A DNA stretch of 64,000 nt. It comes from a virus. This document shows positions 4,866 to 39,000 of this stretch, piece after piece (the first letter of the stretch is position 1; each line of letters begins with the position of its first letter). Below the pieces are notes generated by a model that saw only the letters and a program-made list of their open reading frames with translations, was not told the origin of the DNA and ran no database searches. The DNA is taken from positions 1 through 64,000 of the IMG/VR virus record IMGVR_UViG_3300020045_002314, one strand, 5' to 3'. Position numbers and translations under genes: made by a program.

Positions 4866-5377
4866 GTATAGATAAAACTAAAAATATAAGTAATCATATA
4901 ACTTATAAAGAAGCAGTCTATTCAAGAGATGCTTTAAGATATAATATTGATAATACACCTAATGAACAACAATTAGCTAATATGCAATATGTTGCTAATG
5001 GTATATTTGAACCTGCTAGAATACATTTTGGAATTAGAATGTATATATCTAGTTTTTTTAGAATATTAACATTAAATAAAAAAATAGGTAGTACTGCTAA
5101 ACATGGACATCCTGATGGAACTTGTATAGATGTTGATTGTGATGTTTACGAAGGTATTACCAATAAACAATTATTTTGTTATATTTATAAAAATTTAAAT
5201 TTTACAGAGCTTATATATGAACATCCTAAAGATGAAAAGGATTTAACTAAAGGTTGTGAATGGGTACACTTTCAATTAGTTAAAGGTAGAGAGAAAGAAA
5301 AAGAAGTTGGCATAGTAACATCTAAAGGTTGGAGATTATTAACTAAACAAGAAATTAATTTAATTTTAAATTCATAG
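4862..5377 (+). CDS. Endolysin, peptidase M15A family (Zn D-Ala-D-Ala carboxypeptidase fold)
   Basis: 'IDNTP', 'ISSFFR...LNKKIG...GHPDGTCID...WVH' match the M15A R...H..G.A.D...WVH pattern. Confidence 0.85.
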   Translation: MSIDKTKNISNHITYKEAVYSRDALRYNIDNTPNEQQLANMQYVANGIFEPARIHFGIRMYISSFFRILTLNKKIGSTAKHGHPDGTCIDVDCDVYEGITNKQLFCYIYKNLNFTELIYEHPKDEKDLTKGCEWVHFQLVKGREKEKEVGIVTSKGWRLLTKQEINLILNS

Positions 5378-20780: not shown

Positions 20781-23700
20781 ATGGGATTTTCAAATATTAA
20801 ATCTAATTCTGTAGAATTAAATAATAAAGTATCTAATTTAAAAACAAACCCATCTAATAACAAGATGGGTTTTGCATCTATATCTAATCCTTATGGTACA
20901 GGATATGCAGATATAAAAGATGTAGGTAATTATACAGCTAGTGTAAATTTTGGTGTAACTAAAGATTATTTAAATCAATTTGATTTTAATGTAGGAGTAG
21001 GTATAAACCCTAGTGATAGACAAGCATATAATCAAAGTACACTTGATGTAATTGGTAATTCAGCAGGTAGATTAGTTACTGGTATAGTAGGCAAAACAAT
21101 AGAAGGGTTTGGTTATTTATTTGGAGCAATAACAGGAGGATTATATTTAGCAGGTGAAGCAACTTTTGGTAATACAGAAGATGGTAAAAATAATACTTAT
21201 AATTGGATAGAGGAAAATCCTATAACACAATTAGGTTCATTTCTTGATAAAGGTTTAGAAGAAAGTATGCCTATATATGGTTATGAAAAAGATAAAAATA
21301 CTATTGGATTCAATGCTACATTTATATCTGAATTAATGGATGGTATAGAATTTCTAGGTTCAGCATTTGTACCAGGTGTTATAATAAGTAAAGCAGGTCT
21401 TGGTGTTAAAGCAGCTAGTAGTATTGCTAATATAGGAAGTAAAGCAAGTAAATCATCTAGAACTATATTTAAACAAGCATTATCAGAATTATCAAAAGGT
21501 ACAGCTGAATCAATAAAAGCTGCTGATGAACTTATTTTAAACAGTATGAAAGCAGGAGAATTATCTGAAAATGCTGTTAAAGTATTAAGCACAATTAGGA
21601 AAACTGCTGACCCTGCACTTATTCATGTATATAATGTAGCAAGTGAATCTGCATTTGAAGCATTTGATGCAGGAGAACAAAAATCAAATAGTTTAATAGG
21701 GAAAGTAAATCCTGAAACAGGAGAAATATATACACCTGAGGAATTAGCTGTTATAAAACGTGATGCAGCAGGTAAAGTATTTTTAAATAATGTTGCATTA
21801 TTATCAGTTACTAATTTAGCTGAAACAATGGCTATATCTAAAATATTTAAAAAAGGTACAAACGCTTTTTCTACTAAATATTTAAATAAACTAGATGATG
21901 TTAATAAACCAACTACAAATATAACAAATAGTCGTAAGTTAAGAAACTTTGTATGGGCAGGTTCAAAAACATCTACAGCAGAAGCATTTGAAGAATTAGC
22001 ACAATCTAGAATACAAGAAGGTACAGTAGATGATAAAGATTCTGCAGATATATATAAAGGATTATTTAATAGTATGGCTAATGTATCATTCACTAATGAA
22101 GATAAAAAAGCAATGTTCTTAGGTGCTATTATAGGTTTTATACCAGGAGGTATAGGTGGTGTAACTGATATTAATAATAAACAAGCAGAAGCTAATAGAA
22201 AATATACAGCTTCTATGATTACTAATTCATTATTTCAAGGTGTACAAGATGATTTATTTGTAAGAGATGAAAATGGTGAATATAAAACTGAAAATGGTAA
22301 TCTAGTATTAGATACAGCTAAATATAGAGATTTTATAAATGGTTTAGAAAACAATGAAACAGATACTACAACTAATGGTAGAAAACTTAGAACACAAGGT
22401 ATTATTGATTCTAATCCTGATTTATATTTTCAAGGTGTGCAATTAGATATTCATACAGCTTTATCAAATCTTTATTCTAATAATGGAGAAATAACAGAAG
22501 ATGATTTAAATAACGTAATTGATAAACAAGCTAAGAATATAACAGAAGTATATAATACAGCTACAACTATTAAAAATAGAAATTTAGCTAAACAAATAAC
22601 TATTGATGAAACTAAAAGTAAATTAAAAACATTAAATAAATCTTTATTAACTAACTTTAAAAAGAATAAAGAAACAGCAAATGCACTTACTTTACTAAAT
22701 GGTTTAACTGGTTTAGAGGCTTCTAAATATGCTAATTATATTCAATATAGTTTAAATCATTTGAATCTTAAATTAAATATGAATGATACAATAAATTCAT
22801 ATTTTGAAAAGCTATTACCTAGTGAATATAGAGAATCTGATGGATGGAAGAAACAAATGTATAACACAATACATTCTTTATTAAATCCTGACACAACCAC
22901 CACCGATGGCACTAGAATTGATAATTTCATATCAGATGATTTAAAAGCATCATTAAAATCAGAATTAGAAAGTTTAGAACTTACTATAGATAATAAAGAT
23001 AAAACTAATGGTAAATATACTATTGTTAATTCAGAAGATAGTGAAATAGCTAATTCTTTAATTAAAAATCAATATGATAAAATATTTAATCAAGATGCTG
23101 TTAATACTTTAAATAATAGTAAAAATAGTTTAAAATTATTTAATAATTATAAAAAAGCTGATACAGAATCTAGACAATCACAACATGATATTTCATTTAA
23201 TAATAATACAAATATATTTAATAAAGCATTTGATAAACTTACTACAGAACTAAAAGATACTAACCCTGAAACAATTAATATTTCTGAATTAACTAATCAA
23301 GCTATTGAATTTGATAAACAATATCAAACAGAACAATCTATTATAAAAGGTAAGAAAATTAAAAGTACACCTTTTATAGATATGTTAAATAATAAATTAA
23401 AAACATTAAAGAAAGAATTTCCTAAAACAAAAATTGTTAAAGTAAAAGAAGATGTAATAACAACAGATACAGAACAAACTGTAGAAGATACAACAACAGA
23501 TACACAACAAAATCCATCCATTCTTTCTACTGGGGTTGAGGACATGACTACTAAAGGTTTTTCCAATAATCTAAAAACAGATACTGCAACAGCTATATAT
23601 ACAGAAGAAATAACAGATAAAGAAGGTCATAAAGATACTATTACTTATAGTAATTTAAGAACATTATTATTTAAAGATTATACACCTCTTTCAGTTAATG

Positions 23701-26700
23701 TACAAATTAATGATTTAGTTAAAGATATATTTAAAGGAATATTAACCGAATTAAATTCTGAAATATATAGTAAATATAATTTATTAAGTAAAGAATCTAT
23801 AGATACAATATTTACACAATATTCTGAAATACTTAAAGATTTTAAAACTAAAGGATATGAAATAAAAACTAATATTATTATCAAAGGTTTAGTTAAAAAT
23901 ATAAAATCTAATGAATTAACTAGAGTTGCTGATACTATAGATATAGTATTAGTTAATAAACGTGGTAACTTTATTATTTATAATGTATCTTCTAAATATA
24001 ATAATAGTACAGATGTAACAGCTTATAAAAAGTTATTAAATAGTCAACGTATATTCTTATCACAAAATACAACAGCTTTAACTACATCAATGTTAGTTAG
24101 TGAAGTTAATTTAAATAAAGTTACTAATGAATTTTATGATAATGCTACAGTTGTTAAACCATTTCTAATTGAAGCTATTAATGAAATTTCAACAACAGAT
24201 GTTTTAATTAAAGCACCTATTGATTATAAAGAAATGAGAACAGCAGATGTTGTTGTATCTGATAAAGAAAGATTCTTTGGTACAGAATTAGAAACTAAAA
24301 TTAATAATGCTATAATTAAACATTTAGAGAAATCAATATCGTCTAAATTAAATGAAACACAACGTACTGAATTACAGAAATTATTAAATAATTTTATAGA
24401 TGTTTTTAGAAATATTCAATATACTACAGATGGTAAATCAGGATTAGAAGCTATCTTCTTAGATAAAACTATAACTTATGATGATGCTATAATTGAATAC
24501 TTTTTATATTTTTATAATAGATATAATAGAGAAGTACTAAAACGTAATGATGAAGGTTTAGTATCATTAATTAAAACTATGGTAAATGATATTAATAAAA
24601 TTAAAGGATTAGAAAAAGTAACAATTGATGAATTAGGTATTTTAAAAACACGTAATAATATTGTTAATATTACATTTGAATTTAATGTAGAATTCTTTGT
24701 TAATATATTTACTAAAAAGACTAAACGTGATGTTAGAGAAATGTCAGTAAGTAATACTATTATATATAATGCTATATCAGATTATTCTACATTAAAAGAA
24801 ATTATACTTGGTGATAAAGGTATTTCTAATAATAGACAATTAGGAGTTATATTAAATGATATATTAAATAATAAAATAAAGTCTAACGAAACTCTTATTA
24901 AATTAATAAATTCTACAAAAGAAAAAGATACTAACTTATTTAATAATTTAGTACATTTAGCGATACTTAATAAAATATCTAATTTCATTACAGATAAAGA
25001 TATTTTAAATGAATTACATATTATTAAAAATGAATTAAGTAGTTATTATAAAGCTGATATTACAGTTGAAATAAAAGATGATAAAGGTGTAGTTACTAAA
25101 GAATTAAATATTAGTCCTGATGTAAGAACAGCAATTACTGAATCATTCGATGATATATTAGGTAAGAATATAGAACGTGCTTTAGAATTATTATCAAATG
25201 AAGTAGTATTAGAAAATAATCCTGTAGAAGAAATTATAGTTGAAAATAATAGTAATGATAAAATAGCTGATATAGAAAGAAGAAGACATGAAGAGTTAGT
25301 AAAACCTTTAGAAAAAGTTAAAAATTCAAAAAACAAAGAAGAATTAATTCAATTTTCAGAAGAATGGATAGGAATTAATCCTTATGACGATGGAGCTGTT
25401 TCTATGGGAGTTAGAGCGAATTTAATGACTCCTAATAGTTTTCAAAAAGGTAAAGAACTGTTTATAGAAGAATTCAAAAATACAACAGAAATAAGAAATA
25501 AACAAATCAATGCTAAATATGATGCAGAATTAAAAGCATTAAAGCAACAAAATATACAATCTAATAATCAAAATACAAATACTGAAATAAATACAATAGA
25601 TACTAATATTATAGAACCTATTGATATTATAGAACCTATTGATATTCCTCAATTAACTACATTAAATACTGATAATAGTTTAAGAATATTTTTAAATGAT
25701 TTCTTTAAAACAACTAATAAATCTACAAATGAAAATGGAGATGTTGTTTTAAATGATGATAATATTAAATTAATATATAATGATTTACAGAATTTAAATT
25801 CTAAAACTGAATATTATATTAAAAAAACTAATGTAAATAATTATAATATTTATACAATATATGCTAATATTGAAGGTATTGAAATACAAATTGGTACATT
25901 ACAACGGCAAATAGATGAAACATTTAATGATACATTAGAAGATGTTATAAGTTCTAAATTAGGATATGGATGGGCTGAATATATATATCAAGATATTATA
26001 TATAATTTAAATGAAGAAACAAGAACTAAATTATATGAACTTTTAAATACTGATAGTTTAATTACACCATTTAAACAAAGTGTATTAAATAAAGAATTAT
26101 TAGATAATATATTATCATTATTTCCAAATATTATAACAACTACTGTTAATAATAAAGAATATACTTTAACTAAAATGCAATATATAGAGTTATTGCAAAA
26201 CAATACTCAATATGCTAATAATCCTTCTGAATTCTTAAAGCATTTATCTAATTCATTTAGTGGTAAAAATGCAGCTAAAGGTAAGAATGTAGATTTCTTA
26301 ACTAGAATATATAATGATGCAATAACATCACAAGAAATTATAAAATCATTAACAACACAAGATAAAGTTAATTTAAAATATGTAAAATCATCATCAGGAC
26401 AATATAATAAATCTAATAAACAAAGACCTTTATTTGAAGTATTTGATAAAACTAAAGGTAGATTAGCACATTATTCTAATGGTATATTACAATATAGAAA
26501 TAGTGATGGAACAACGGATGCTGTGTATAATCAACAATTAATTGATACAGTACAGAAATTTAAAAAACCTAATGGTTATTATTGGGTTACTACTGAAAAC
26601 TTTAATAAATCTGAATTTCCTATTAAATTAGGACAACGTAATATAACTACAGATGAAGCTTTAAATATATATAATGAATTATTAAAGAATAATTATAATC

Positions 26701-29700
26701 CTATATATAAATTATTAACTACTAATAAAATAAAAGATTTATTAAAACAAGTATCAGGTATAGATAAAGATATTAAATCGTATACTAGTCAAGATTTAGA
26801 TAAAACTAAATTTATGGAATTAGCAACTAATACATTTGTTGATTTTATATTTGGTAATGATAACGTAAAACATAATAGAAGTTCTTATGATAATTTAGGA
26901 AGTATATTTACAACTGATGTAAATTATGTATTAGATAATGAAGGTAATAAAATAGGAGTTACTACACCATTTGCTAGTACAACAAATATTTCATATGTTG
27001 AAAGAGCATTTACATTAATTTTAGAATTAGATAATACACAAGTTAATAATATAACTAAATTTGATAATACTAATCTTAATAATATTAAAAATGGTGTAGA
27101 AGAATTATTTAATTCTAATCCTGATTTAGCAAATATTGGTACACAAGAACAATACTCTGCTTATCTTGATACTATATTTCCTGATAGTAAAGTTAAAGAT
27201 GTTGTTTATCATGGAGCTAATGAACCTATTGAAGGAGATAAATTTGTTGTAAGACCTGGTGCAACAGGTAATGGTATATGGTTTTCAGGTTCTAAACGAT
27301 ATGCCACACAAGTATTAAATAGAGCACCTCAGCAAGAATCTTTACTTGGAAGAAAGCTAAGAGGTGAACCTACAATGTATAGTGCTATATTAAATATTAT
27401 AAACCCTAAACATTACAAAGATGCAAGTGGAGCAATATTAGCACAAAGCCCTGAAAGATTTCTAGAAGGAAAAATAGAAGAATATAGATTACATGGTAAT
27501 GAACAATATAATAAAGATATAGATGACGGTGCATTATTTCATCATCCTAATTCAAAGAAACCAGATACAAGTGATTCTGCTGAACAAGTTGTAGTATTTA
27601 ATCCTGACCAAATACATATTCTAGGTTCTAAACAAGATATTGAAGGATTTAAAGAATTTATAAATGATACTCCAATAATTACAGATATTTCAGTACAAGA
27701 ATTAGAAGATATTTTAGATAAAGAAAAGCAAAAATTGTTAAACCCTTTAATTGAAGAGAAACAAGAATTAGAAACATTATTAGAAGAATATGAAGAATTT
27801 AAAAATATTAATAATATTAAAATAAAAGAACTTATTTTTTCTAATGAAATAAATATAAATTCTATTATTACTGATAATGTTACAGAAATAGAAATAGAAG
27901 AAATTGCTAAAGAAGAATATATTAAAATTGAAGAAGTTAAACCATTAATTGAAAAAACTTTAAATACTGTATTAAATGATAAACGTAAACTTACTAATTT
28001 AAATTCAAAATTAAAAACTATAATCTCAAAAATATTAAAAACAATATTAACATTAGGTATTATATTTACATTACATACAAATTTTAAAAATGATATTAAA
28101 GAATACAAAATAAAAGAAGTTATTAAAACTGAAGTAAATATAGATACTATTGATAATAGCTATGATAAATTAACTAATGATGGTAAAATAGCGTATTTAC
28201 AAGAAAAACAAAATAATAAAGCATTTATAATAATTGATAAACCTACAGCAACTGCATACATATATGATAAAGATGGTAAACTAATAAAATATTTTCCTGT
28301 ATTATTAGGACAAAGTATTGGCGATGAAATAAGTAAATCAGATGCAAATTCGGATGTAGCCGAAAATGCTTTTACAACAAGTGGACGATATGTATTACAA
28401 GCTGCTCCTGAAAAAGTTTTAAGTGAATACAATAATAGACTTATGTATATAGATTCTGAAACAGGATTGGCTATACATGAAACTTATAAAGGTGAATTAA
28501 AAGAACGTACTAAAGCTTTAAATACTCCAACTATAGATGATAATCGTAAAACATGGGGATGTGTTAATGTAAGTTCTGAAAATTATGATATTTACTTAGC
28601 TCCTCATATACAACCAGGAAGTGTTATTATTATAACACGAGATTTTCAAAATAATATTGTTAAACCTATAAATATACAAGAATCTAAAAAAACTTCTAAA
28701 CAATCAAATGTTAGTTTTAATATTTTAGCATTATTAGGATTATCTTCATTATTACGTAAAAAACAAATATCAAATTTATCAGAACAAGATATTGAATCTT
28801 TAAAAAATAGAATTATAGATATTAATAATAAAATTAATGAAATTAAAACCTATTATGCTAATATACGAATTAATAATAATTTAATACAAGAATTAGAAGA
28901 TGATGATTTACCTGATGTATTTCGTAGAACACCTATTAATCAAAAAGAAATTAATATTAAATCATCTTATGAATCAGCTAAACAATATCTTGAAGAAAGA
29001 TTAGGTAATGTTAAATTTAATTGGTTAAATGAATATGTTGAAAGAATACCTGATGTAAAAACACATGGGTTTGTAAGTAATGCTGCTATAACCTTAATAG
29101 AAGGTGCAGCATATGGTACAGAATATCATGAAGCATTTGAATATGTATTTAAATATTTAATTGGAGATACATATAAAAGTGAAGTTATTTCCGAAGCATC
29201 TAAATATTATAAAACAGATGATGTTAATTTATTAAGAGAACAACTTGCAGAAGATTATAGATTATATGAAATATTAAGAAATGAAGAGAATAAACCTAAA
29301 ACAATTATAGATTTCTTTAAACATCTATTTAAAACACTTAGAGAATTTATATCACTTAGTCCATATACTAAAAGATTATTTGAAGATATTTATAATGGTA
29401 GATTTGTTAATAAAGAAATATTGACAAATAATGAAAATGTAGGAATTATAGCTAATAATTATTTAAATTCAATTAAAGGATTTACACCTAGTAATTTAGA
29501 TAGTAGTATAAATCTTACAGTAGCCTTGATGGTAGCTGCTCAAAATCATACTCAAATTATAAATGGTAAGCGTGTTAAATTATCAGATATATCTATCGAA
29601 ACAATTGTTACTAATAAAACTGATGATGGTTCGTTTAATAATAAATATAATATTAAACACGTAGTTATTAATATATTAGCTAAAAAGATTAATACAATGT

Positions 29701-32700
29701 TTAAAGATAAATCAGAAGTATATAAAATTACTTATGATAAATTTAATGAACAATATATTACATCTTTAGATACTATTGAAGCAATTACATTTACTAATTA
29801 TTTAAATAATAATACAGCTATCCTAAATGATTTAAAATATAATAATACAGATGTATCAATATATTCTTTAGCTAGAAAATATATGAATGATAAATTATTT
29901 ACATCATTTTATGATATTAATGATTTAGAAGAAATTAAAGATAATAGAGTAAATGCTTTAACTAAAATGTATGATGAAAATATATTTTCAGAATCACATT
30001 CTTATAACTTTAGTCCTATTGTTAAACAATATCTTGCATCTATTAAAGAAAAAACATTTGATATAAATGGTGGAGTTATAGATAAATTAGATGATTTTAC
30101 AGGACTACCTAAATTTATAGATTTTGAAATATTATATAATAAATTAATTGATATTTTAGCAGGTACTCATACTATAGATGAAAAACTTAATGTACTTAAA
30201 ACACATTCTAATTTTCATCCTACACTTAAAGAAATATATAATAAACTTACAGAATTACAAGATAATAAATTAGCCAATGAAGATTTATATAATGCTTTTA
30301 TGTCAGATTTTACAGGTACATACTTTGATGAATATGCTACTAATCTTACAGAAGAAGCTATATATTTAAATAAATTAAATCAGACACCTAAAGAAAATAT
30401 ATTAAATACTATTAAAGGAAATATATATTCTAATCAAGCTATTACTAAACTTACTATAGAAGATTTAAAAGGATATTTAACTATTATAAATTCTAGTACT
30501 AACAATTCTGAAATTATGGATATGTTAGTTAAAATATTTAATTATATATCTGTACCTATTACTAAAGATATTTTATATAGTTATATAAAAGATGAAACTA
30601 TTAATATAGATAATAAAACTACTTTATTAAAATCATTAGTCACAGAAGATAAATTAAATGGATTACTTAAAGTTGTTAATTCTAGTAATAATAATAATAA
30701 AGATATTAATATCTATTTAGAAAAATATTCTGAAATGATTAATAAATATTCTTTAGCTAAATTAGAATTATCATATACCGATATTAATGGTAATAAGAAA
30801 TATTCATTTAGAAAATATAATACAATTAATGAATTCTTTAGTAAATTAAAATCTAAACATGAACCAAATCAAAATAGTGTTAAAGAATATTTAATGGAAT
30901 TAATGTTAGATAATTCATATCATTATTCTAATTGGTTATTTAATAATAAAGGATTATTAGTTAAAGAAGGTAGTAGAGTTTCATTAAATACAAATCTTGT
31001 ATCTAATTTTGATATAGCTTTATATGGAGGTAGTAAAAATGCTACTGGACAAACAAGTGGTTATCTTAGAGAAACTCACTTTGAACAAGCTATCAATAAT
31101 TTATCATGGTATATGAATTCAAAATTTATATCACCTATGCCTTTTGGAGATAGTACAAATCATTATATGATTAAAGCTATTAACTTTAAATTATTACCTA
31201 ATGATATAACCATTAAAGATAAATCAATTATATTAAGTGATAAATCAGATATATTTATAGCTTTACGTAATGTTATATTACAAGAGAAAATAAGAATGAG
31301 TGAAGCTAAAATGTATATGTATAATAAGGATGGTAAGTTAAAACCAGATTATGAATTAGAACAATTAAACCTTATTGAAAATGTACATTATAAAGTTGAT
31401 AAATCAGGTAATAGAATTTATAGAGATGAAAAAGGAAATCCTGTAGGTAATATATTTAAATTTAATAATATAGAACTTACAGAAGATATTATTTATAATG
31501 GTGAAGTACAACTTAATTTAGTCAATGAACAAGTTATTAATGATGCTATTCAGAAGCTTATTAATAATGAAATGAATTCAAACTTAGGTGTATTGTATAA
31601 ATCATTAAACTCTGAATTCCCTACTATATCTGATACAGAATTTAATAATATTATTTTAGAACTATTAATGAATACATTAATTACTAATGTTGAAATTGGT
31701 AATTTCTTCAATGGTAATATCATGCAACAAAGTAAAGTCGCAGGTGTTAATAAAAGAGCTAAAAAAGGTATTCAATTTGGTTATAATTTATATAGTAATT
31801 CAACATTATCTACAATTGTAGTAAATGATAGAATGATTAATTTAAATACCAAAGGTGAATCTAATCGTAAAGAAACATATACTAATATTATAAATAGAGT
31901 ATCTACTATTGTAAATACTAATTATAATAATAAATATAAAGATATTATATTAGCTAATATTAAATCTCAATATAGTGCTGATATTAATTCTACAGATGGT
32001 TGGTCTATAATGACTATAGACGGATATGTAAAAATGTATTTAGAAGGTAAAGGTAGATTTAACGATTATAGATATTTATTTAATTATACTAATGGTAAAT
32101 ATACACTTAAATCTAATTTATCTAAACAAGATATAAAAGCTGTATTACAAGTTATTAAACCTATTATGGTTGATATGAAATCTAATATTATAAAAGATGA
32201 TAAAACTGAATATCGTGTAAATGTAGCACGTTATGAAAAACTATCAATCTTTATAATAGATGAATTATTTGTACAACCTGATAGTGAAATGCAAGAATTA
32301 CTTACAGCGATGAATGAAGGTATTGATGGTAAACCTATAGACAGAATTATATTTGCATCAGGTAAGAAAGATGGTAACGTAAAAAGATATTCTATCTTTG
32401 ATGAAAATGCTAAATTTAATAAAGATTTATTTAAAGCACAACCACATATTGTAGAAGATATACCAGTATCAAAATATAAAATACAATTAGAAGTACCTGA
32501 TGATATTAGAGATAAAGAAATAAAAGTAGGAGTACAATTATATAAACATATAGCTAGTAATATAAATAATATACATTCTTACAAACCTTCTTTTTTAATT
32601 TCTAAAAATGATATATCAGGTAAACAATTAAAACAAGAACATCAAAATACATTTAGTTCTATAATTAAGAAACAATCAACTAATTTATTAAAAACATTAT

Positions 32701-35700
32701 ATGATAATTTAAATCTTAGAGATAATGCAGACCATACATTGATTTATAATAATTTAGTAAGAGCATTACAAGATAGAAATATACCTAATGATATTATTAA
32801 ATCTATTAAATTAATTAATAAAAAGATTGTTACAGATTTAGGTGCTAATGGTATAAATGATAAAATAGTACCAGTTATTAATTCATTATTTAGAAATAAT
32901 ATAACAGATACTAAATTAGAAGGTGGACATACTGTTATTTTATCTGATGCTTTTTCTAATACAAGTTTAAAAGATGCAGAATATTCTGATGATTTAAAAT
33001 GTTATGCAGATGAAAATGGTAATTGGGTTGTAGAAGTATATATGCCTGTATGGAATTCTGAATTATTAGATGAATTAGGTAATCCAGTTGATATATCTAA
33101 ATTAGATAATAAATTATTAAATGGGATTGGTTATCGTGTACCTATTACATCACAACATAGTATGGTTACATATAAAGTAAAAGGATTTACACCTCCAACA
33201 TCAGGTAGTGTAATTACATTACCTTCTAATTTAATAACACAAACAGGATGGGATTTTGATGTTGATAGTATTTATTTATTAACTAAAACCATAAAGAAGA
33301 TAAAAGGTAGATATTATGCTAATAGTTATAAACGTATAACTTATCAAGATTATTTAAATAATTCTATACTTGAAAATTATAACTTATCTGAATTAACTGA
33401 AATATCAGCTAAATATATAAGTTTAGATTCTGAATTAAAAACATTAAATAAATCTTTAGATAATGCTGAATTAAAAACATCTACTAATTATAAAGAAAAT
33501 TATAATAAATTACAATATCTATTAGAACGATATAATAAAGAGATAGATGTAGACAAAAAACAGAAGATGGAGAAAAGTCTATATAATTTAAGAGTTATGT
33601 TATTAATGGATGCTGCATTAGAAATAAATACAAATGTAGATGAAGAATTTAAATCTAAGTTTAAAACACTTAAAGATGAAAAAGATAAATATTTTAAAGA
33701 GATAACTAAATTATTAATTAATAAAGGTTTAATTTATAAAGAAAGTAAGTTTGAAGAATTAGTTAAATCAGATATAACTACTGTACTTACTATAGAACAA
33801 TTACAAAATAGAATGATTGATATATGGACAGATATGTTAAGTCAAAATAATGGTTTTATAGCAATGGTTACATCTTCTACAATTAAACCTAATGAATTAA
33901 TTAGAGATGAAATAAATACTATATTTGAAAGTAATAAAGTAAGTAAAAGCCCTATATTAGCTAGTAATAATTTTAATACAAGAATTAATACAACATCAGG
34001 AAAAGAGATGTTAGGTATTGCAGCTAATAGTGGTTCGATTATAACTATATTAGAAGAAGGTAGTGCAGTATTAAACTATGATTTACAAATACCTTATTAT
34101 ATTGAATATAATGATGTAAATTTAAATAATGTACAAAATGATTATGGTAATTATGAAGTTATTACATTTAATAATCGTAAGTATATTAAAACTAAATTTA
34201 AAAATATAGGTTGGAACGATAGTGGAGATACTAGAATGTTAACTAAATTATATGAAGATAATAACGATGTTGAATATACATATACTATTTCAGAATCTAT
34301 AGGTTGGGATACAGACCATTCAGTAGATATTAATTCATCGTTAATGCCTAGAAATATAAATCGTAATACAATAGGTACTAATATTGCAGCTAAAATGTTG
34401 AAATTACCACCTAGATATATTACATTATTATTTAATCAAAAAATCATAGATGATATGTTAAATTTAATAAATAAACATAATCCTAATGATGGTAGATTAA
34501 ATGCAAAAACAGCTATCGAAGATATTTATTTTACAATGTTATTTAAGAAATTAGCATATACTGATAATAAATTTAATAATAATGTTGAGTATGTAGAAAT
34601 GAATAGAGATTATATTAAACATAATACTGTATTATCGAATAAGTTATATAATGATAATAAAAGTGTATATGATATATTCAATATTGTAGATGAACCTTTT
34701 GATGAAGTTGATTTAAAAAACTTTATAATTGAAGGATTAGATATTCAAAAACAGCCAGTAGATAAACAAGTAGAGTTTATTAAGAAGCAACTTAATGTAT
34801 TTAAAATGTATAAATATTTGAATAGTACATCAGAAGCAATGTTAGGTGAAACATCTAAAATGAATGCTGATAAAATAGATTCAGGTATAACATTTGATGC
34901 TGTTACAGATTTAATTAAAGCTGTAGATAGTAAAGATAAAGTTGTTATATATACAAATACAGGTAAACCATTCTTAAAAGAATTATATAGTAATCCTGAT
35001 TTATATAAATTAATGTATACATATTATAAAGAAGGAGTTGAGAATTTATATAATATAGCTAAAGATTTATTTGGTTATTTAACACCTACTTTAAAAACTG
35101 AAATAGATGGATTCCATGAATTATATCCTTATGCTAGAAGAGAAGTTTATAAATTTATAAGAAGTATATATTATAGTATATATAAAGATTTTAATTTATT
35201 TAAATTAGCTAATGATGAAGTTAATCAAAATTTATATAACTTAAAAAATGATAATAGTTTAGTATCAAGAATAGTTAAATTAAAAAGTAAACCTGAAAAT
35301 CAACAACCTATTTGGTTACAATATATAAATGTTGTACCTTTTAGAAATAATCAAAACTACGCATATTTAACATTTACTAATTATAATAATAAAATGTTAA
35401 ATTATATACATGATAGTTTTAATAATTATATAGATGAAAACATAGAAGATAATTATACACTTGTTGAAGATTTAGTTAAATATGCTTATTTCAAAGAAGG
35501 ATTTACATATAAATATAGTAATATTTCTAATTTATTAACAGATTTTACATTTACTATTTTAGGTTTTAATGATTATAAAATAAATGCTTTTAATAAAATT
35601 AAAACAGATACTTTAAATTTAGATACAAATAATATATTATTATCATTCTTATTAACTAATAGATATGATAATCAGTTTGTACCTAAAGTAAAAGTAACTA

Positions 35701-36032
35701 AAAAGAATAAAACATGGGATGTATTAAATGGTAATAAGATAAAGAATATTATTACTATTGATGCTACAAGTTATGCAAGATTATATAGTAATATTCAAAA
35801 TGCTCCTATTGTTAGGCGAACAATTAAATATAATAATAAGTTTATAGATTTATTTTATTATAAAACATTTGATGAAGTTAATAAAATACATGAATATAAA
35901 TTATTAGATACTAAAAAACTATTACCTTATACTAATATATCTTTAAATAATATTAATAATATAGATAATGTAGCAGGTGTTTCTTTTTATGATAACGATG
36001 ATATGTCAGTTGAATTATATTGTAACAATTAA
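20781..36032 (+). CDS. Giant virion-packaged DNA-dependent RNA polymerase polyprotein (crAss-type double-psi-barrel RNAP) with accessory domains
   Basis: 5083 aa; catalytic 'GYRVP.TSQHSM...QTGWDFDVD' (DFDVD at 33252-33266) and 'INSTDG' (~31990); Gly-rich hydrophobic N-terminal segments; synteny with crAss RNAP loci. Confidence 0.88.
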   Translation: MGFSNIKSNSVELNNKVSNLKTNPSNNKMGFASISNPYGTGYADIKDVGNYTASVNFGVTKDYLNQFDFNVGVGINPSDRQAYNQSTLDVIGNSAGRLVTGIVGKTIEGFGYLFGAITGGLYLAGEATFGNTEDGKNNTYNWIEENPITQLGSFLDKGLEESMPIYGYEKDKNTIGFNATFISELMDGIEFLGSAFVPGVIISKAGLGVKAASSIANIGSKASKSSRTIFKQALSELSKGTAESIKAADELILNSMKAGELSENAVKVLSTIRKTADPALIHVYNVASESAFEAFDAGEQKSNSLIGKVNPETGEIYTPEELAVIKRDAAGKVFLNNVALLSVTNLAETMAISKIFKKGTNAFSTKYLNKLDDVNKPTTNITNSRKLRNFVWAGSKTSTAEAFEELAQSRIQEGTVDDKDSADIYKGLFNSMANVSFTNEDKKAMFLGAIIGFIPGGIGGVTDINNKQAEANRKYTASMITNSLFQGVQDDLFVRDENGEYKTENGNLVLDTAKYRDFINGLENNETDTTTNGRKLRTQGIIDSNPDLYFQGVQLDIHTALSNLYSNNGEITEDDLNNVIDKQAKNITEVYNTATTIKNRNLAKQITIDETKSKLKTLNKSLLTNFKKNKETANALTLLNGLTGLEASKYANYIQYSLNHLNLKLNMNDTINSYFEKLLPSEYRESDGWKKQMYNTIHSLLNPDTTTTDGTRIDNFISDDLKASLKSELESLELTIDNKDKTNGKYTIVNSEDSEIANSLIKNQYDKIFNQDAVNTLNNSKNSLKLFNNYKKADTESRQSQHDISFNNNTNIFNKAFDKLTTELKDTNPETINISELTNQAIEFDKQYQTEQSIIKGKKIKSTPFIDMLNNKLKTLKKEFPKTKIVKVKEDVITTDTEQTVEDTTTDTQQNPSILSTGVEDMTTKGFSNNLKTDTATAIYTEEITDKEGHKDTITYSNLRTLLFKDYTPLSVNVQINDLVKDIFKGILTELNSEIYSKYNLLSKESIDTIFTQYSEILKDFKTKGYEIKTNIIIKGLVKNIKSNELTRVADTIDIVLVNKRGNFIIYNVSSKYNNSTDVTAYKKLLNSQRIFLSQNTTALTTSMLVSEVNLNKVTNEFYDNATVVKPFLIEAINEISTTDVLIKAPIDYKEMRTADVVVSDKERFFGTELETKINNAIIKHLEKSISSKLNETQRTELQKLLNNFIDVFRNIQYTTDGKSGLEAIFLDKTITYDDAIIEYFLYFYNRYNREVLKRNDEGLVSLIKTMVNDINKIKGLEKVTIDELGILKTRNNIVNITFEFNVEFFVNIFTKKTKRDVREMSVSNTIIYNAISDYSTLKEIILGDKGISNNRQLGVILNDILNNKIKSNETLIKLINSTKEKDTNLFNNLVHLAILNKISNFITDKDILNELHIIKNELSSYYKADITVEIKDDKGVVTKELNISPDVRTAITESFDDILGKNIERALELLSNEVVLENNPVEEIIVENNSNDKIADIERRRHEELVKPLEKVKNSKNKEELIQFSEEWIGINPYDDGAVSMGVRANLMTPNSFQKGKELFIEEFKNTTEIRNKQINAKYDAELKALKQQNIQSNNQNTNTEINTIDTNIIEPIDIIEPIDIPQLTTLNTDNSLRIFLNDFFKTTNKSTNENGDVVLNDDNIKLIYNDLQNLNSKTEYYIKKTNVNNYNIYTIYANIEGIEIQIGTLQRQIDETFNDTLEDVISSKLGYGWAEYIYQDIIYNLNEETRTKLYELLNTDSLITPFKQSVLNKELLDNILSLFPNIITTTVNNKEYTLTKMQYIELLQNNTQYANNPSEFLKHLSNSFSGKNAAKGKNVDFLTRIYNDAITSQEIIKSLTTQDKVNLKYVKSSSGQYNKSNKQRPLFEVFDKTKGRLAHYSNGILQYRNSDGTTDAVYNQQLIDTVQKFKKPNGYYWVTTENFNKSEFPIKLGQRNITTDEALNIYNELLKNNYNPIYKLLTTNKIKDLLKQVSGIDKDIKSYTSQDLDKTKFMELATNTFVDFIFGNDNVKHNRSSYDNLGSIFTTDVNYVLDNEGNKIGVTTPFASTTNISYVERAFTLILELDNTQVNNITKFDNTNLNNIKNGVEELFNSNPDLANIGTQEQYSAYLDTIFPDSKVKDVVYHGANEPIEGDKFVVRPGATGNGIWFSGSKRYATQVLNRAPQQESLLGRKLRGEPTMYSAILNIINPKHYKDASGAILAQSPERFLEGKIEEYRLHGNEQYNKDIDDGALFHHPNSKKPDTSDSAEQVVVFNPDQIHILGSKQDIEGFKEFINDTPIITDISVQELEDILDKEKQKLLNPLIEEKQELETLLEEYEEFKNINNIKIKELIFSNEININSIITDNVTEIEIEEIAKEEYIKIEEVKPLIEKTLNTVLNDKRKLTNLNSKLKTIISKILKTILTLGIIFTLHTNFKNDIKEYKIKEVIKTEVNIDTIDNSYDKLTNDGKIAYLQEKQNNKAFIIIDKPTATAYIYDKDGKLIKYFPVLLGQSIGDEISKSDANSDVAENAFTTSGRYVLQAAPEKVLSEYNNRLMYIDSETGLAIHETYKGELKERTKALNTPTIDDNRKTWGCVNVSSENYDIYLAPHIQPGSVIIITRDFQNNIVKPINIQESKKTSKQSNVSFNILALLGLSSLLRKKQISNLSEQDIESLKNRIIDINNKINEIKTYYANIRINNNLIQELEDDDLPDVFRRTPINQKEINIKSSYESAKQYLEERLGNVKFNWLNEYVERIPDVKTHGFVSNAAITLIEGAAYGTEYHEAFEYVFKYLIGDTYKSEVISEASKYYKTDDVNLLREQLAEDYRLYEILRNEENKPKTIIDFFKHLFKTLREFISLSPYTKRLFEDIYNGRFVNKEILTNNENVGIIANNYLNSIKGFTPSNLDSSINLTVALMVAAQNHTQIINGKRVKLSDISIETIVTNKTDDGSFNNKYNIKHVVINILAKKINTMFKDKSEVYKITYDKFNEQYITSLDTIEAITFTNYLNNNTAILNDLKYNNTDVSIYSLARKYMNDKLFTSFYDINDLEEIKDNRVNALTKMYDENIFSESHSYNFSPIVKQYLASIKEKTFDINGGVIDKLDDFTGLPKFIDFEILYNKLIDILAGTHTIDEKLNVLKTHSNFHPTLKEIYNKLTELQDNKLANEDLYNAFMSDFTGTYFDEYATNLTEEAIYLNKLNQTPKENILNTIKGNIYSNQAITKLTIEDLKGYLTIINSSTNNSEIMDMLVKIFNYISVPITKDILYSYIKDETINIDNKTTLLKSLVTEDKLNGLLKVVNSSNNNNKDINIYLEKYSEMINKYSLAKLELSYTDINGNKKYSFRKYNTINEFFSKLKSKHEPNQNSVKEYLMELMLDNSYHYSNWLFNNKGLLVKEGSRVSLNTNLVSNFDIALYGGSKNATGQTSGYLRETHFEQAINNLSWYMNSKFISPMPFGDSTNHYMIKAINFKLLPNDITIKDKSIILSDKSDIFIALRNVILQEKIRMSEAKMYMYNKDGKLKPDYELEQLNLIENVHYKVDKSGNRIYRDEKGNPVGNIFKFNNIELTEDIIYNGEVQLNLVNEQVINDAIQKLINNEMNSNLGVLYKSLNSEFPTISDTEFNNIILELLMNTLITNVEIGNFFNGNIMQQSKVAGVNKRAKKGIQFGYNLYSNSTLSTIVVNDRMINLNTKGESNRKETYTNIINRVSTIVNTNYNNKYKDIILANIKSQYSADINSTDGWSIMTIDGYVKMYLEGKGRFNDYRYLFNYTNGKYTLKSNLSKQDIKAVLQVIKPIMVDMKSNIIKDDKTEYRVNVARYEKLSIFIIDELFVQPDSEMQELLTAMNEGIDGKPIDRIIFASGKKDGNVKRYSIFDENAKFNKDLFKAQPHIVEDIPVSKYKIQLEVPDDIRDKEIKVGVQLYKHIASNINNIHSYKPSFLISKNDISGKQLKQEHQNTFSSIIKKQSTNLLKTLYDNLNLRDNADHTLIYNNLVRALQDRNIPNDIIKSIKLINKKIVTDLGANGINDKIVPVINSLFRNNITDTKLEGGHTVILSDAFSNTSLKDAEYSDDLKCYADENGNWVVEVYMPVWNSELLDELGNPVDISKLDNKLLNGIGYRVPITSQHSMVTYKVKGFTPPTSGSVITLPSNLITQTGWDFDVDSIYLLTKTIKKIKGRYYANSYKRITYQDYLNNSILENYNLSELTEISAKYISLDSELKTLNKSLDNAELKTSTNYKENYNKLQYLLERYNKEIDVDKKQKMEKSLYNLRVMLLMDAALEINTNVDEEFKSKFKTLKDEKDKYFKEITKLLINKGLIYKESKFEELVKSDITTVLTIEQLQNRMIDIWTDMLSQNNGFIAMVTSSTIKPNELIRDEINTIFESNKVSKSPILASNNFNTRINTTSGKEMLGIAANSGSIITILEEGSAVLNYDLQIPYYIEYNDVNLNNVQNDYGNYEVITFNNRKYIKTKFKNIGWNDSGDTRMLTKLYEDNNDVEYTYTISESIGWDTDHSVDINSSLMPRNINRNTIGTNIAAKMLKLPPRYITLLFNQKIIDDMLNLINKHNPNDGRLNAKTAIEDIYFTMLFKKLAYTDNKFNNNVEYVEMNRDYIKHNTVLSNKLYNDNKSVYDIFNIVDEPFDEVDLKNFIIEGLDIQKQPVDKQVEFIKKQLNVFKMYKYLNSTSEAMLGETSKMNADKIDSGITFDAVTDLIKAVDSKDKVVIYTNTGKPFLKELYSNPDLYKLMYTYYKEGVENLYNIAKDLFGYLTPTLKTEIDGFHELYPYARREVYKFIRSIYYSIYKDFNLFKLANDEVNQNLYNLKNDNSLVSRIVKLKSKPENQQPIWLQYINVVPFRNNQNYAYLTFTNYNNKMLNYIHDSFNNYIDENIEDNYTLVEDLVKYAYFKEGFTYKYSNISNLLTDFTFTILGFNDYKINAFNKIKTDTLNLDTNNILLSFLLTNRYDNQFVPKVKVTKKNKTWDVLNGNKIKNIITIDATSYARLYSNIQNAPIVRRTIKYNNKFIDLFYYKTFDEVNKIHEYKLLDTKKLLPYTNISLNNINNIDNVAGVSFYDNDDMSVELYCNN
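25606..25646 (+). repeat. 18-bp tandem repeat (ATATTATAGAACCTATTG x2.3) encoding IIEPID twice
   Basis: Read directly; lies in a linker after the inserted cassette. Confidence 0.9.
27085..27665 (+). other. ADP-ribosyltransferase-like (ART-PolyVal type) domain within the RNAP polyprotein
   Basis: 'VVYHGA..GIWFS..YA..MYSAILNIINP..DG..EQVVVFNPDQIHILGS' follows the ART-PolyVal pattern (YHG / G.YFT / E..VF.P.QI). Confidence 0.7.
28221..28640 (+). other. L,D-transpeptidase (YkuD)-like domain within the RNAP polyprotein
   Basis: 'IIIDK..AYIYDKDGKLIKYFPVLLG..TTSGRY..LAIHET..DNRKTWGCVNV..PGSVIII': His and G-C catalytic pattern of YkuD. Confidence 0.75.
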
Positions 36033-36042
36033 TTAAGTAATT

Positions 36043-39000
36043 ATGATTTGTCCTAATTTAAAAAACAAAGAAGTTAAAATAGAATTTATGAAGATTTCAA
36101 ATCTTATAGGTAGTAACAATGCTTATAAGGTTTGGAATTTAAATAATGGTAATCCATTACATTTAAATTCAGATGGTAGCCCTAGTCAAACTTATAAAGA
36201 TTTAATGAATAAGTTAATAAATGATGAAGAACTTGTTATTAAAAAGATAAGTGAAAATTTATTAAATAATGAAATAATTATTGAACCTAATGAACTTCAA
36301 AAACAATCATTTATAGCATTTAATGAAATAGCTACTGAACAATATACAAATAAAGTTAAAGATTTATTATTATATAATTTTAGTAAAATAGGTTTAAATA
36401 ACATTAACGTAATAGCGGATACTACATTAAAAGATAATGCCAGTGTAGAGAAAATAGATGGTGTTATAACAATTAAATTCAATCCTAATAAAATTAAAAA
36501 CGATAGTATATTTCATGAATTTGGACATATCTATATAGACTTAATAGAAGATAAAGTATTTATACAAAATATTATAGATAAACTTAAAGGTACTGATTTA
36601 TGGTATAAAATAGCTTTATTATATCCTGAACTTACAGAAGAACAATTAGGTAAAGAAGTATTAACTACTGCTATAGGAATGAAAGCAAAAGAAATATATA
36701 ATACAAGTGAAGATGTTTCATGGTGGAAATTTATAGTTAATTTAATTAAATCTAAGTTACAAGAATTATTTAATACTAAAGAACATCAAATTGAACAATT
36801 AGCTAATGATTTAATAACAGGTGATTTTAGTAAACAAATAAATCATAATTATGATATATTATTACAACATCAAAAAGATGCTATTGATATTAATTCATTA
36901 AAAGATTGGACAGAAGCAATACAATCACAATCTAATAAACTACAATCGTTAATAAAACAATATAAAGATTTAGGTATAAGACCTGAGGAAGTTAATGATA
37001 GTATTAAAGTAAAAGCTAAATATGATAGATATTTAAATCATTTAAATAATACTAATTTAACTAATATGTTTGAAGCTTGTGTATCAATGTTAGAATTTGA
37101 TAAAACAACTTTAATAACAGTAGAACAAGATATTGAAAAACTTAAAAAAGTATTTAATAAAAACTTTACACCTGAAACAATAACTTTAGATGAATTTAAT
37201 TATTTAAATCAACGTATAAACTTTGCACGTAATTTTGTTAATTCAATAATTGATATATCTAATATAACAAATCCATTATTAGCTACAGATTTAGATTTTA
37301 TTAATGGAGAATTATCTCAAGAAGAAGTTACATATATAAATAATATTAATAATTCATATTTAAAATTAATGCAATCTGTTGATATTAAAAGTTTTGATAG
37401 ACGTGTTAAAGAAATTAATATGGTTTTAGATAAGTTTAGACAAATATCTATGACTTGGGTTTTACAATTAAGTAGTAATCCTAGATATGAAAAGTTTGAA
37501 CAATCAGATTGGATGGATTTATATAAAACTGGATTAGTAGATGAAACAACAATGCAATTATATTTCGATTCTATATTTGATAGTAGTAATTCATTCTTAG
37601 CTAATTTTGCTAAATATGAAATGTTTAATTATTCCTTTATGAATGATGAAATAAGAAGATTAAAAATAGAATTTAATAAACAATTAAAAACAGCAGGTGG
37701 AAATGATGTTTATGATAAGATTATAGAAAATGGTAGATTAATACAAAAATATAAATTTAGTGAATTTTGGACAGACTTAAATAAAGCTTTAACAGAAGGT
37801 AATAAAAATGATGCATGGAATATTAAATTAAAGTATGCAAATATTGCTACACCTGATGAATTTAATAAAGCTATTGTTAATATGCGTTCTAAAGTTAAAG
37901 ATGATTTAGATTTAAAACAAATGTCTGTAGAAGAAGCTAGTAATTATATTACAGAAGAAGAATGGAATCTATGGATTAAAGATAACTTTCATCAAAAATC
38001 AGATGGTACTTATATACCTAGAATAGGAGGATTATATGCTTTACCTAAAGATACTTATATAAATCCTAAATGGGAAACGTTACAATCTAATCCTATAACT
38101 AAAGAATTTCATGGATATATGGTAGAATTAATGCGTAAACTTACAAGTCATGCTTCTAATTCACCACAGTATAAAGGTTATATGGCTGCTATATCTAAAA
38201 CTAAATTAAATAAAGTAAAAGTAGAAAAGTTAGATGAAGAGTTTTCAGATATGGATGGTAATAAATTATATACTATCCCATTCCCATTTTTAGGTTATTT
38301 AAGTAATGAAACTAAAATACCAATTCGTCAACAAGTTACTGATGAAACAGATGAAATGTATGAAAAAAGTATAGTTGACTATGCTAATCTTTTATTTAAA
38401 GATAAAGTTGGATTTGTACCTTTTACAACATTAAAAGAAATATTAAAAGAAAATGATAATATTGAAAAACGTAATAAAGAATTTCATAAAGAACACGTTA
38501 ATACAGATTTAAAATATACAATGGATTTATTTATTGAATCAGCTATTACTAATAAATATAAAGCTAGAATGTATGATAGTGTTATGTTAGCATTATATTC
38601 ATTTGAAAATGATACATTAATAAATACAAATAATAAAGGTAAAAATGTTATTGATAAGTTAAAGTATGCAATAGGTTTAACAGATTCAGGAGAAATTAAT
38701 AGACAACCAAACACCTATCTTACTAAAGGGGTCTTAACCAAATCAGCTAAACATCTTCGTAAAAAGATTGAAATGACTTTCTTTGATATGTTTACTAAAC
38801 CTAATGATTATAATGATGTTCTACAAAAGTTTAAAAATTATACATCTTTAATTGGTATAGGTTTTAATGGTTTAGCAGCATTTAAAAATGTTACATATGG
38901 TGGTTATATGTCATTAATAGAAAGTAGTTGTAAACAATTTATATCTTTTAAATCATTAGATAAAGGTGCTAGATTATATCATTCAGGATTAGTAGATTAT

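Follow-up and report, generated by a model that had tools for sequence, protein, structure and literature searches.

The window analysed in this work is a 64,000-nucleotide (nt) stretch of DNA taken from the start of a virus record of 90,192 bases (IMG/VR record IMGVR_UViG_3300020045_002314). The record has direct terminal repeats and is rated 100% complete. The completeness rating and the RNA polymerase (RNAP) matches described below identify the virus as a complete 90-kb crAss-like phage. The window contains an open reading frame (ORF) for 5083 amino acids (aa) on the plus strand (20781..36032) that forms a single uninterrupted frame. A separate DNA-level search found the frame open for 5092 aa with no stop within the match to the YkuD family. 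The encoded giant protein consists of a region similar to the virion protein g067 of Cellulophaga phage phi14:2, extra modules, and a virion RNAP similar to g066 of the same phage. The subject of this work is the module at aa 2359-2692 of the giant protein, in which a YkuD (L,D-transpeptidase-fold) domain is flanked by two hydrophobic segments.

The YkuD domain occupies aa 2462-2625 (28164..28655, plus strand) and was identified by Pfam (PF03734), by structure prediction, by Foldseek, and by VIA-align. On the protein, PF03734 matched aa 2481-2618 with an expect value (E) of 1.3e-8 and 36 bits against a cut-off of 23.4, covering positions 2-146 of the 146 in the profile. On the DNA, the same family matched nt 28221-28634 (E 9.1e-11, 38.6 bits). 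The putative catalytic His2566 is found in the motif AIHET (codon 28476..28478, plus strand; H208 in module numbering) and the putative nucleophile Cys2594 in the motif TWGCVNV (codon 28560..28562, plus strand; C236 in module numbering). Both residues are invariant in 59 of the 59 rows of the module alignment, and so are the neighbouring G235 and N238. The alignment exhibits ten invariant positions altogether (G2510, D2515, T2532, G2535, H2566, R2576, R2589, G2593, C2594, and N2596).

The structure of aa 2359-2692 was predicted with AlphaFold2 from the 59-row alignment. The model has a mean predicted local distance difference test (pLDDT) score of 80.1, and the blocks of the YkuD core mostly score 90-97. 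Foldseek with this model retrieved 62 matches from the PDB at E<=1e-3; at the top are L,D-transpeptidases together with two L,D-carboxypeptidases, Pgp2 and Csd6. VIA-align retrieved 84 chains at Z>=8, including Ldtfm (6fj1; Z 13.2, root mean square deviation (rmsd) 2.8, 128 aligned residues), Bacillus subtilis YkuD (1y7m; Z 12.9, rmsd 2.4, 110 aligned residues), the LdtMt2 entries (Z 12.7), Csd6 (Z 12.7), and Pgp2 (Z 12.0). The best PDB matches of the model are all YkuD-fold enzymes, and its alignments to L,D-transpeptidases and L,D-carboxypeptidases span Z 12-13.2, rmsd 2.0-2.8, and 109-128 residues. Model residues 121-264 superpose on LdtMt2 residues 251-381, which we take to be the range that holds the catalytic pair; this is an indirect hint that His2566 and Cys2594 may lie close together in space. 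As predicted by the model, the YkuD fold is genuine, and its His and Cys are intact and invariant. An initial annotation made from the sequence alone had read a YkuD pattern with intact His and Cys at this place, and its peptide and residue positions agree with the translation to within one base.

The initial annotation had also placed the domain between two hydrophobic segments with basic residues on their outer sides, and both features were recovered. The module opens with acidic and basic helices (aa 2359-2412; 27855..28016, plus strand) that are conserved in four other giant proteins introduced below (P0003, P0009, P0015, and P0019) and are modelled in blocks with pLDDT 85-95. A related motif precedes the anchor in the Patescibacteria-type proteins discussed later. 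The helices are followed by hydrophobic segment 1 (aa 2413-2433; 28017..28079, plus strand), a candidate membrane anchor with its N-terminal side predicted to be cytoplasmic according to hydropathy, the model helix, and its counterparts in other proteins. Within it, ILKTILTLGIIFTLHT corresponds to aa 2418-2433 (nt 28032-28079). Segment 1 has a Kyte-Doolittle mean of 1.75 over 19 residues with two Lys within, and lies in a 30-residue model helix (module residues 51-80). Linker 1 (aa 2434-2461; 28080..28163, plus strand) and linker 2 (aa 2626-2643; 28656..28709, plus strand) connect the YkuD domain to the segments on its two sides. Both are non-helical and of low confidence, with pLDDT below 50 at module residues 80-90 and 276-291, respectively. 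Hydrophobic segment 2 (aa 2644-2658) and the directly following RKK (aa 2659-2661) form a candidate return anchor (28710..28763, plus strand) according to hydropathy and homologues; VSFNILALLGLSSLL-RKK corresponds to aa 2644-2661 (nt 28710-28763). Of the three most hydrophobic 11-mers in the 5083 residues, segments 1 and 2 provide two, and the same is true of the 15-mers. Only 3 windows of 19 residues in the whole protein exceed a Kyte-Doolittle mean of 1.6. The net charge is +4 in the 20 residues before segment 1 and +1 in the 20 residues after it.

Relatives of the module were identified using an exhaustive profile search that retrieved 1481 representatives at E<=1e-3, with 765 of them reaching E<=1e-10 and 142 reaching E<=1e-30. 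Four relatives longer than 1000 aa are present among the best 150 of the 1481 representatives. They are P0003 (4838 aa, domain at 2396-2566), P0009 (1930 aa, domain at 1656-1820), P0015 (2707 aa, domain at 2525-2687), and P0019 (2140 aa, domain at 1189-1358), whose ends were taken as true on the basis of the gene calls and a shared C-terminal Cys. The charged helices, a hydrophobic segment, a linker, and the YkuD domain are common to the window protein and all four giants. The module is the sole strongly conserved part of these proteins, with 48-53% identity between the window protein and the four giants over 171-185 columns (E 1e-46 to 1e-54). Beyond the module, P0003 matches the window protein at the RNAP motif (44.7 bits) and at an N-terminal stretch (42 bits), and P0009, P0015, and P0019 have no match to it outside the module. 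The DFDxD metal-binding motif of the RNAP is present in P0003 as DFDID and absent from P0009, P0015, and P0019, and the N-terminus of P0015 is g067-like (E 9e-13). The module therefore appears to belong to a g067-like virion cargo protein, and its link to the polymerase to come from fusion. The initial annotation had located the YkuD domain inside an RNAP; the two do share one ORF, but the module is not tied to the RNAP, as three of the four other giants are without DFDxD.

A more distant carrier of the module, P0179, has the polyvalent-protein domain PF18857. It was the only relative among 8000 scored candidates in a word-index protein search with the module at longer lengths, a result that is weak evidence of absence, and the same search at near lengths found none among 1577 candidates. 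A tblastn search of 50,697 phage records with the module gave no match at E<=1e-3. No relative was found in IMG/VR scans, which may leave out the record of the window itself, when the queries were the module, P0015, P0019, alignment A1, and two degenerate patterns. A pattern scan of metagenomes gave 9 loci, of which L005 is a clear relative and L003 has a weak match of 30 residues; the remaining 7 were rejected as chance motif matches. The best matches in BFVD (E 1.1e-15 and 2.8e-12) come from fragments of phage proteins that bear names such as 'large polyvalent protein associated domain', and a weak match (E 1.3e-2) is the 'L,D-carboxypeptidase/transpeptidase' of the crAss-like phage cr116_1.

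The flanking segments were compared across 12 module-bearing proteins, which are related to each other; two of them, P0116 and P0176, are nearly identical and do not count as independent rows. Segment 1 is found in all 12. The 20 residues before it have a net charge of +2 to +6 in 11 of the 12 proteins (except P0179 with -1), and that of the 20 residues after it stays between -2 and +1 in every protein. The window protein, P0003, and P0019 have a second hydrophobic 13-mer past the domain (score 1.94-2.51), with RKK, KKKK, or KKRK after it. Segment 2 with its basic cluster is thus present in three of the four proteins that run 813-2489 residues past the Cys (except P0179), and in none of the eight proteins that end 38-141 residues past the Cys. 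Both the charges and this presence and absence are as an in-out topology (without segment 2) or an in-out-in topology (with segment 2) would predict.

Of the best 150 relatives of the module, 143 are small proteins of 176-422 aa. Five sequences that were inspected (the 210-aa ORF of L005 and P0005-P0008) open with a hydrophobic leader. One cluster of relatives has members named L,D-transpeptidase in metagenome-assembled genomes (MAGs) of Chlorobaculum. A scan of species genomes gave at least 588 confirmed loci, and the best 80 belong mostly to Sphingomonadales and Burkholderiales. The Pfam YkuD family did not recognise three small relatives at E<=0.01, and NCBIfam gave no match at E<=0.01 for either the module or five of its relatives. 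The top three genome loci are located on MAG contigs of Patescibacteria or Saccharibacteria or on unclassified MAG contigs, and their proteins have 589, 596, and at least 1283 aa. These three proteins consist of a coiled coil or other N-terminal part, the related pre-anchor motif, one hydrophobic anchor, a linker, and a C-terminal YkuD domain, and P0116, P0129, and P0141 exhibit the same build. UvrD helicase genes adjoin the anchored YkuD gene on one such contig, which suggests that the contig DNA is cellular. On the Saccharibacteria MAG contig L013 (3891-6241), the UvrD-like helicase that neighbours the anchored YkuD protein is split into ORFs of 440 and 321 aa.

A FastTree tree was constructed from 221 domain cuts, with SH-like (Shimodaira-Hasegawa-like) support as its only branch support. 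The representatives without the Cys motif pattern, those with a cut below 140 residues, and the DNA of L012 and L013 were left out, and the proteins of L012 and L013 (P0177 and P0178) were entered in place of the DNA. A branch with an SH-like support of 96 separates the five giants from the other rows, inside a 12-row clade (support 100) that they share with the anchored proteins; any order within the giant group would be provisional. The module likely originated by in-frame capture of a membrane-anchored bacterial YkuD gene, because the nearest non-phage relatives are single-anchor, C-terminal-YkuD proteins with a predicted N-in orientation on Patescibacteria MAG contigs that are its sister group in the tree. 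The initial annotation had offered such a capture as the alternative to a function in the phage. The capture is the likely origin by relatives and tree, but a captured origin does not exclude function and is not an alternative to it. The GC content is about 17-33% in the module region of the genome, with 0.26-0.30 over the YkuD domain and 0.16-0.25 around it. A recent horizontal transfer was considered from this rise and dropped, as amino-acid constraint explains the GC content equally well.

The N-terminal part of the giant protein (aa 47-511; 20919..22313, plus strand) is homologous to the phi14:2 virion structural protein g067 (tblastn E 1e-5; blastp E 3e-12, 26.8% identity over 485 columns) and has Gly-rich hydrophobic stretches in its region (aa 110-124, 188-202, and 444-458). 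A later part (aa 3347-4165; 30819..33275, plus strand) is homologous to g066, the catalytic virion RNAP of phi14:2 (blastp E 8.7e-12 over 905 columns), and carries DFDVD, an instance of the DFDxD motif, at aa 4158-4162 (nt 33252-33266). By tblastn, the last 1510 residues of the protein have matches in 77 phage records (best E 4e-16, 22-27% identity). All 77 records are crAss-like, and many of the matches are labelled 'putative RNA polymerase'. A CrAss_Ring_2 tail ring protein (E 3.1e-12) is encoded upstream of the giant ORF. In phi14:2, g067 (1797 codons) and g066 (2180 codons) are adjacent and are followed by g065 (1421 codons), and the annotation of all three as virion proteins stems from tandem mass spectrometry (MS/MS) proteomics. 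Judged by these alignments, the giant protein is a g067-g066 fusion with about 1100 extra residues. The g066 start extrapolated from the alignment falls near aa 2760, and the YkuD module (aa 2359-2692) therefore lies at the g067/g066 junction. According to part of a published account, the orthologues of g065, g066, and g067 belong to the virion, and some phages have them as fusions that are probably cleaved (10.1101/2020.03.07.982082). From this literature and the MS/MS-annotated homologues, the giant protein would be packaged in the virion.

Two disparate domains of the giant protein were recognised, namely YkuD by Pfam and the RNAP by blastp. Pfam, scanned at E<=0.1 over five overlapping pieces of the ORF, gave no family besides YkuD, and PHROGs gave no match to the five pieces at E<=1e-3. 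An ART-like domain that had been proposed ahead of the module was not recovered, with no Pfam match at E<=0.1 for aa 1201-2400. The corresponding DNA (27100-27700) has a GC content of 0.29-0.33 against about 0.2 around it. A motif pair, DIE(R/K)RR and A(K/Q)YDAEL, is also present in three giants, at different positions and with different inserts between the two motifs (window 25267-25308 and 25510-25530; P0003 aa 1967 and 2225; P0009 aa 1428 and 1489).

The giant protein is nearly free of Cys, with only three (2594, 4074, and 5081) in 5083 residues. Six carriers of the module with 5083, 4838, 1930, 2707, 2140, and 1945 residues have 3, 4, 2, 2, 2, and 1 Cys, respectively, and the YkuD Cys is retained in every one of them. 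Of the putative cargo ORFs of the window (16400-40320), those of 617 and 832 aa have no Cys and those of 5083 and 1425 aa have three each (6 in 7957 residues in total), and eleven other upstream ORFs have 43 Cys in 4755 residues. It is also observed that a Cys stands within the last four residues of all seven g067-like or g066-like proteins examined, which are otherwise nearly Cys-free. The endings are C-N-N in the window protein, C in P0003, C-A-I in P0009, C-G-I in P0015, C in P0019, C in phi14:2 g067, and C-K in phi14:2 g066. The C-terminal Cys sites are at 36021-36029 of the window (aa 5081-5083) and at 17272-17283 and 23814-23825 of L011 (phi14:2).

We hold with slightly better than even confidence that the module is a self-contained unit of anchor and wall enzyme, in which a membrane hairpin of an ejected protein would hold the YkuD domain on the side of the wall. 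The insertion into the membrane, the sidedness, the substrate, and the timing are parts of this proposal that we infer from sequence, model, and analogy. The module would stem from membrane-anchored bacterial YkuD proteins with the N-terminus inside and the enzyme outside. It would now form the C-terminal part of a g067-like virion cargo or ejection protein in a group of crAss-like phages, and it would lie in the middle of the protein in this phage because the g067-like protein is fused to a g066-like RNAP. The giant protein would be packed in the capsid and would leave ahead of the DNA. Its two hydrophobic helices would enter the cytoplasmic membrane as a hairpin, and the YkuD domain would remain outside, facing the wall, held by two tethers that are each about 20-28 residues long. 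The upstream modules and the polymerase would remain cytoplasmic and tethered to the membrane at the entry site.

YkuD enzymes trim stem peptides, cleave cross-links, and couple to their substrates transiently and covalently via a Cys thioester. Cys2594 may likewise attack a peptidoglycan stem peptide to form a thioester, so that, near the entry channel, the domain trims the wall, undoes its cross-links, or is coupled to it for a time. By analogy with known ejection systems, the YkuD domain probably acts on the host wall during infection. The cargo proteins of crAss001 are described, in part of the account, as exiting before the DNA and forming a channel (PMC10172136). Portions of the literature also state that the virion RNAP (vRNAP) of N4 is proposed to refold in the cytoplasm and yet stay anchored to the membrane (PMC13434306), and that gp96 of P23-45 combines RNAP, transmembrane, and metallopeptidase domains in one protein (10.1101/2022.12.01.518664). 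The N4 ejection proteins are without a wall enzyme in the part of the account that concerns them (PMC13434306).

In a bolder and rather improbable reading, the YkuD domain would be a covalent grapple and no wall-cutting tool. After ejection, a thioester between Cys2594 and the stem peptide, or transfer of the stem to a phage protein, would fix the channel and the tethered polymerase to the sacculus at the site of entry. If this were true, transcription by the anchored polymerase could help to pull the genome in, the scarcity of other Cys would shield the one reactive thiol, and the C-terminal Cys that is conserved would act as a partner.

Several findings weigh against the proposal of a wall enzyme on a membrane hairpin. 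On the side of the enzyme, the domain departs from the YkuD family motif, which is a His, 14-17 residues, and Ser/Thr-His-Gly-Cys-hydrophobic-Asn. The His-to-Cys spacing in the module is 28 positions, and a Trp stands directly before Gly-Cys. Sequence searches of the PDB with alignments A2 and A3 gave nothing significant, the best L,D-transpeptidase being 8da2 (E 0.32), and the YkuD domain is therefore regarded as a remote subfamily; matches to the transferrin receptor in these searches were rejected as chance (E 0.6). YkuD enzymes cross-link, trim, or detach lipoprotein and are not known to open the sacculus, which makes the benefit for entry less evident.

On the side of the membrane, the strongly hydrophobic cores have only 11-13 residues each, and segment 2 has a Kyte-Doolittle mean of 1.99 over 15 residues that falls to 0.95 over 19. 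The model helix of segment 2 (module residues 289-301) has a low pLDDT, and alignment A3 scatters the query tail past the domain over distant columns of the giants, so the model of segment 2 is thinly supported by correct alignment. P0179, with 29% identity to the module, runs 1347 residues past the Cys without a second hydrophobic segment within 130 residues, and the pattern of three of four against none of eight rests on few independent events. A protein that is soluble for packaging and later inserts into the membrane needs an extra mechanism, and cleavage of the polyprotein may undo the tethering of the polymerase. The initial annotation had itself cautioned that both segments are short, and the two Lys of segment 1 and the low 19-residue mean of segment 2 bear this out. 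Its in-out-in topology fits the comparative charges and the distribution of segment 2 and fails to accommodate P0179, and it is at present a topology read from sequence.

The same short cores, the need for solubility before packaging, and the lack of a nearby second segment in P0179 would be expected if the YkuD domain acted in transit or while lining a trans-envelope channel, with the helices packed together or against other ejection proteins and not spanning the bilayer. The ejection proteins of T7 and N4 are slender helical channel formers in the part of the account that describes them (PMC13434306), which would suit this arrangement. It nevertheless has to contend with an anchor-type charge asymmetry in 11 of 12 proteins, with the single clear anchor that the sister-group proteins have at the same place, and with a segment 2 that is found in three of four continuing and none of eight ending proteins, always followed by its basic cluster. 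We consider it an unlikely explanation. Action in the producer cell is markedly less probable. It would have part of the newly made protein inserted by the host machinery, as is the case for the membrane-anchored or secreted bacterial enzymes from which the module stems, and would have it remodel the wall late (superinfection exclusion or lysis preparation) instead of at ejection. The N-terminal and RNAP parts are, however, homologous to annotated virion components of phi14:2, about 2400 residues lie ahead of the first anchor, and a separate gene for an M15-like peptidase (4862-5377; weak match of 21.4 bits against a cut-off of 23.2) is a possible lysis enzyme.

The position of the module exactly at the fusion junction raises another question, namely whether the Cys-His domain acts on phage proteins by cutting the polyprotein at the g067/g066 junction or by cross-linking the cargo, with the helices as docking elements. 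Such polyproteins are expected to be cleaved according to part of the literature (10.1101/2020.03.07.982082), and a motif search found HExxH absent from the 5083-aa protein. Yet the structural neighbours are all peptidoglycan enzymes, and the unfused carriers P0009 and P0015 retain the module with no junction to cut. The next ORF, moreover, has HEFGH and stands in the position of g065, which bears a zincin as stated in the same partial source (10.1101/2020.03.07.982082). A phage-protein substrate is thus improbable, slightly more so than action in the producer cell. The least credible reading takes the module as an inactive relic of the captured gene. The unusual His-Cys spacing and the unusual residue before Gly-Cys, compared with the family motif, would fit a relic, and the activity of the module is itself a prediction. 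A relic would hardly be the best conserved part of very fast-evolving proteins, keep ten positions invariant in 59 of 59 rows with the His and the Cys among them, and retain this Cys where the proteins are otherwise nearly Cys-free, and we regard it as very improbable.

The remaining ORFs of interest lie on both sides of the giant ORF. The 1425-aa ORF that follows it (36043..40320, plus strand) occupies the place that g065, an RNAP-associated protein of 1421 aa, has in phi14:2, is similar to it in size, and has HEFGH at aa 158. Blastp against g065 found no match in the 468 g065 residues compared, and homology would rest on nothing beyond position and motif; the assignment of this ORF as a g065 homologue was dropped. 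Near the N-terminus of the 617-aa ORF (16400-18253), Pfam recognised a glycine zipper (Gly-zipper_Omp, 26.2 bits, aa 27-67), and the same short region matches PHROGs of tail lysins and tape measure proteins. This ORF is a candidate for a membrane-active cargo protein. The 171-aa ORF (4862-5377), whose weak match below the cut-off is to Peptidase_M15_3, is a possible endolysin. The 770-aa ORF (1780-4092) has a Laminin_G_3 or concanavalin-like lectin domain (E 2.9e-20) and is a possible receptor-binding protein.

The proposal bears on how crAss-like phages cross the host envelope and on how a huge packaged polymerase reaches the cytoplasm. The structural work on crAss001 proposes a channel of cargo proteins and names no wall enzyme in the part that deals with them (PMC10172136). 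The module also offers a testable handle, as it comprises a soluble domain with a single Cys and two mappable segments between a g067-like cargo protein and a polymerase. It further points to a bacterial YkuD subfamily that Pfam missed in three small members.

The YkuD domain of the module is similar to the YkuD/L,D-transpeptidase family PF03734 (B. subtilis YkuD, Enterococcus faecium Ldtfm, Mycobacterium tuberculosis LdtMt2, Csd6, and Pgp2) in the fold, the match to the full profile, the His, the Gly-Cys, and the Asn at Cys+2. Unlike the solved members, to which it has about 14-21% identity, it has a helix inserted between His and Cys and a Trp before Gly-Cys, and it is embedded in a putative virion protein between two hydrophobic helices. 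It shares the motif of the Cys region and the invariant residues with the small secreted or anchored YkuD-like subfamily of Sphingomonadales, Burkholderiales, Chlorobi, and Patescibacteria or Saccharibacteria MAGs. The anchored Patescibacteria-type forms have the pre-anchor helices and the anchor in common with the phage modules as well, and are their sister in the tree. However, the subfamily proteins have 176 to at least 1283 aa, carry the enzyme at the C-terminus, and are without a second hydrophobic segment. None of the five cellular members tested was recognised by NCBIfam, and no member with an assayed function was found in the literature.

The giant protein is similar to the cargo proteins of Crassvirales (phi14:2 g067, g066, and g065; crAss001 gp47, gp49, and gp50) in its homology to g067 and g066, its DFDVD, and its gene order. 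It differs from phi14:2 g067, which has no Pfam family and no late hydrophobic pair; none of the eight best hydrophobic 15-mers of g067 lies beyond residue 1104. A YkuD module is not mentioned in the available parts of the crAss001 and phi14:2 accounts (PMC10172136, 10.1101/2020.03.07.982082). The initial annotation knew of no described RNAP-YkuD fusion, and none was found in a search of article texts on crAss-like phages with transpeptidase or YkuD, which returned nothing relevant. YkuD is listed 10 times among phage lytic proteins in part of the PhaLP account (PMC8310338), and a gut phage endolysin with YkuD has been mentioned (PMC13284279).

In design, the giant protein is like T7 gp16, other ejection proteins with a wall-cutting domain, and gp96, the tape measure protein of Thermus phage P23-45, in which one ejected chain combines a wall domain, membrane-active segments, and a cytoplasmic function (a virion RNAP in P23-45). 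T7 gp16 has a transglycosylase domain. Its enzyme is a glycan-cutting one and that of P23-45 gp96 is a metallopeptidase, and neither has the thiol L,D-transpeptidase fold of the module. How T7 gp16 functions at the inner membrane is set out in part of one account (PMC13434306). Polyvalent proteins also combine many unrelated domains in one virion-delivered chain, wall-attacking domains and virion polymerases among them (PMC5512222, Iyer et al. 2017). The giant protein may be of this kind, with YkuD and RNAP in one chain that would be delivered likewise. The wall domains listed for polyvalent proteins are lysozyme, SpoIID-like, DD-peptidase, and zeta-toxin kinase; 'YkuD' and 'transpeptidase' occur 0 times in the main text of that work, and its supplements may list YkuD (PMC5512222). 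Wall-acting domains in ejected or polyvalent phage proteins are thus already known, and the variant here is a YkuD domain that stands between hydrophobic segments beside an RNAP. It would add a thiol L,D-transpeptidase fold to the wall-acting domains of ejected phage proteins, which have so far been mostly glycan-cutting enzymes and metallopeptidases.

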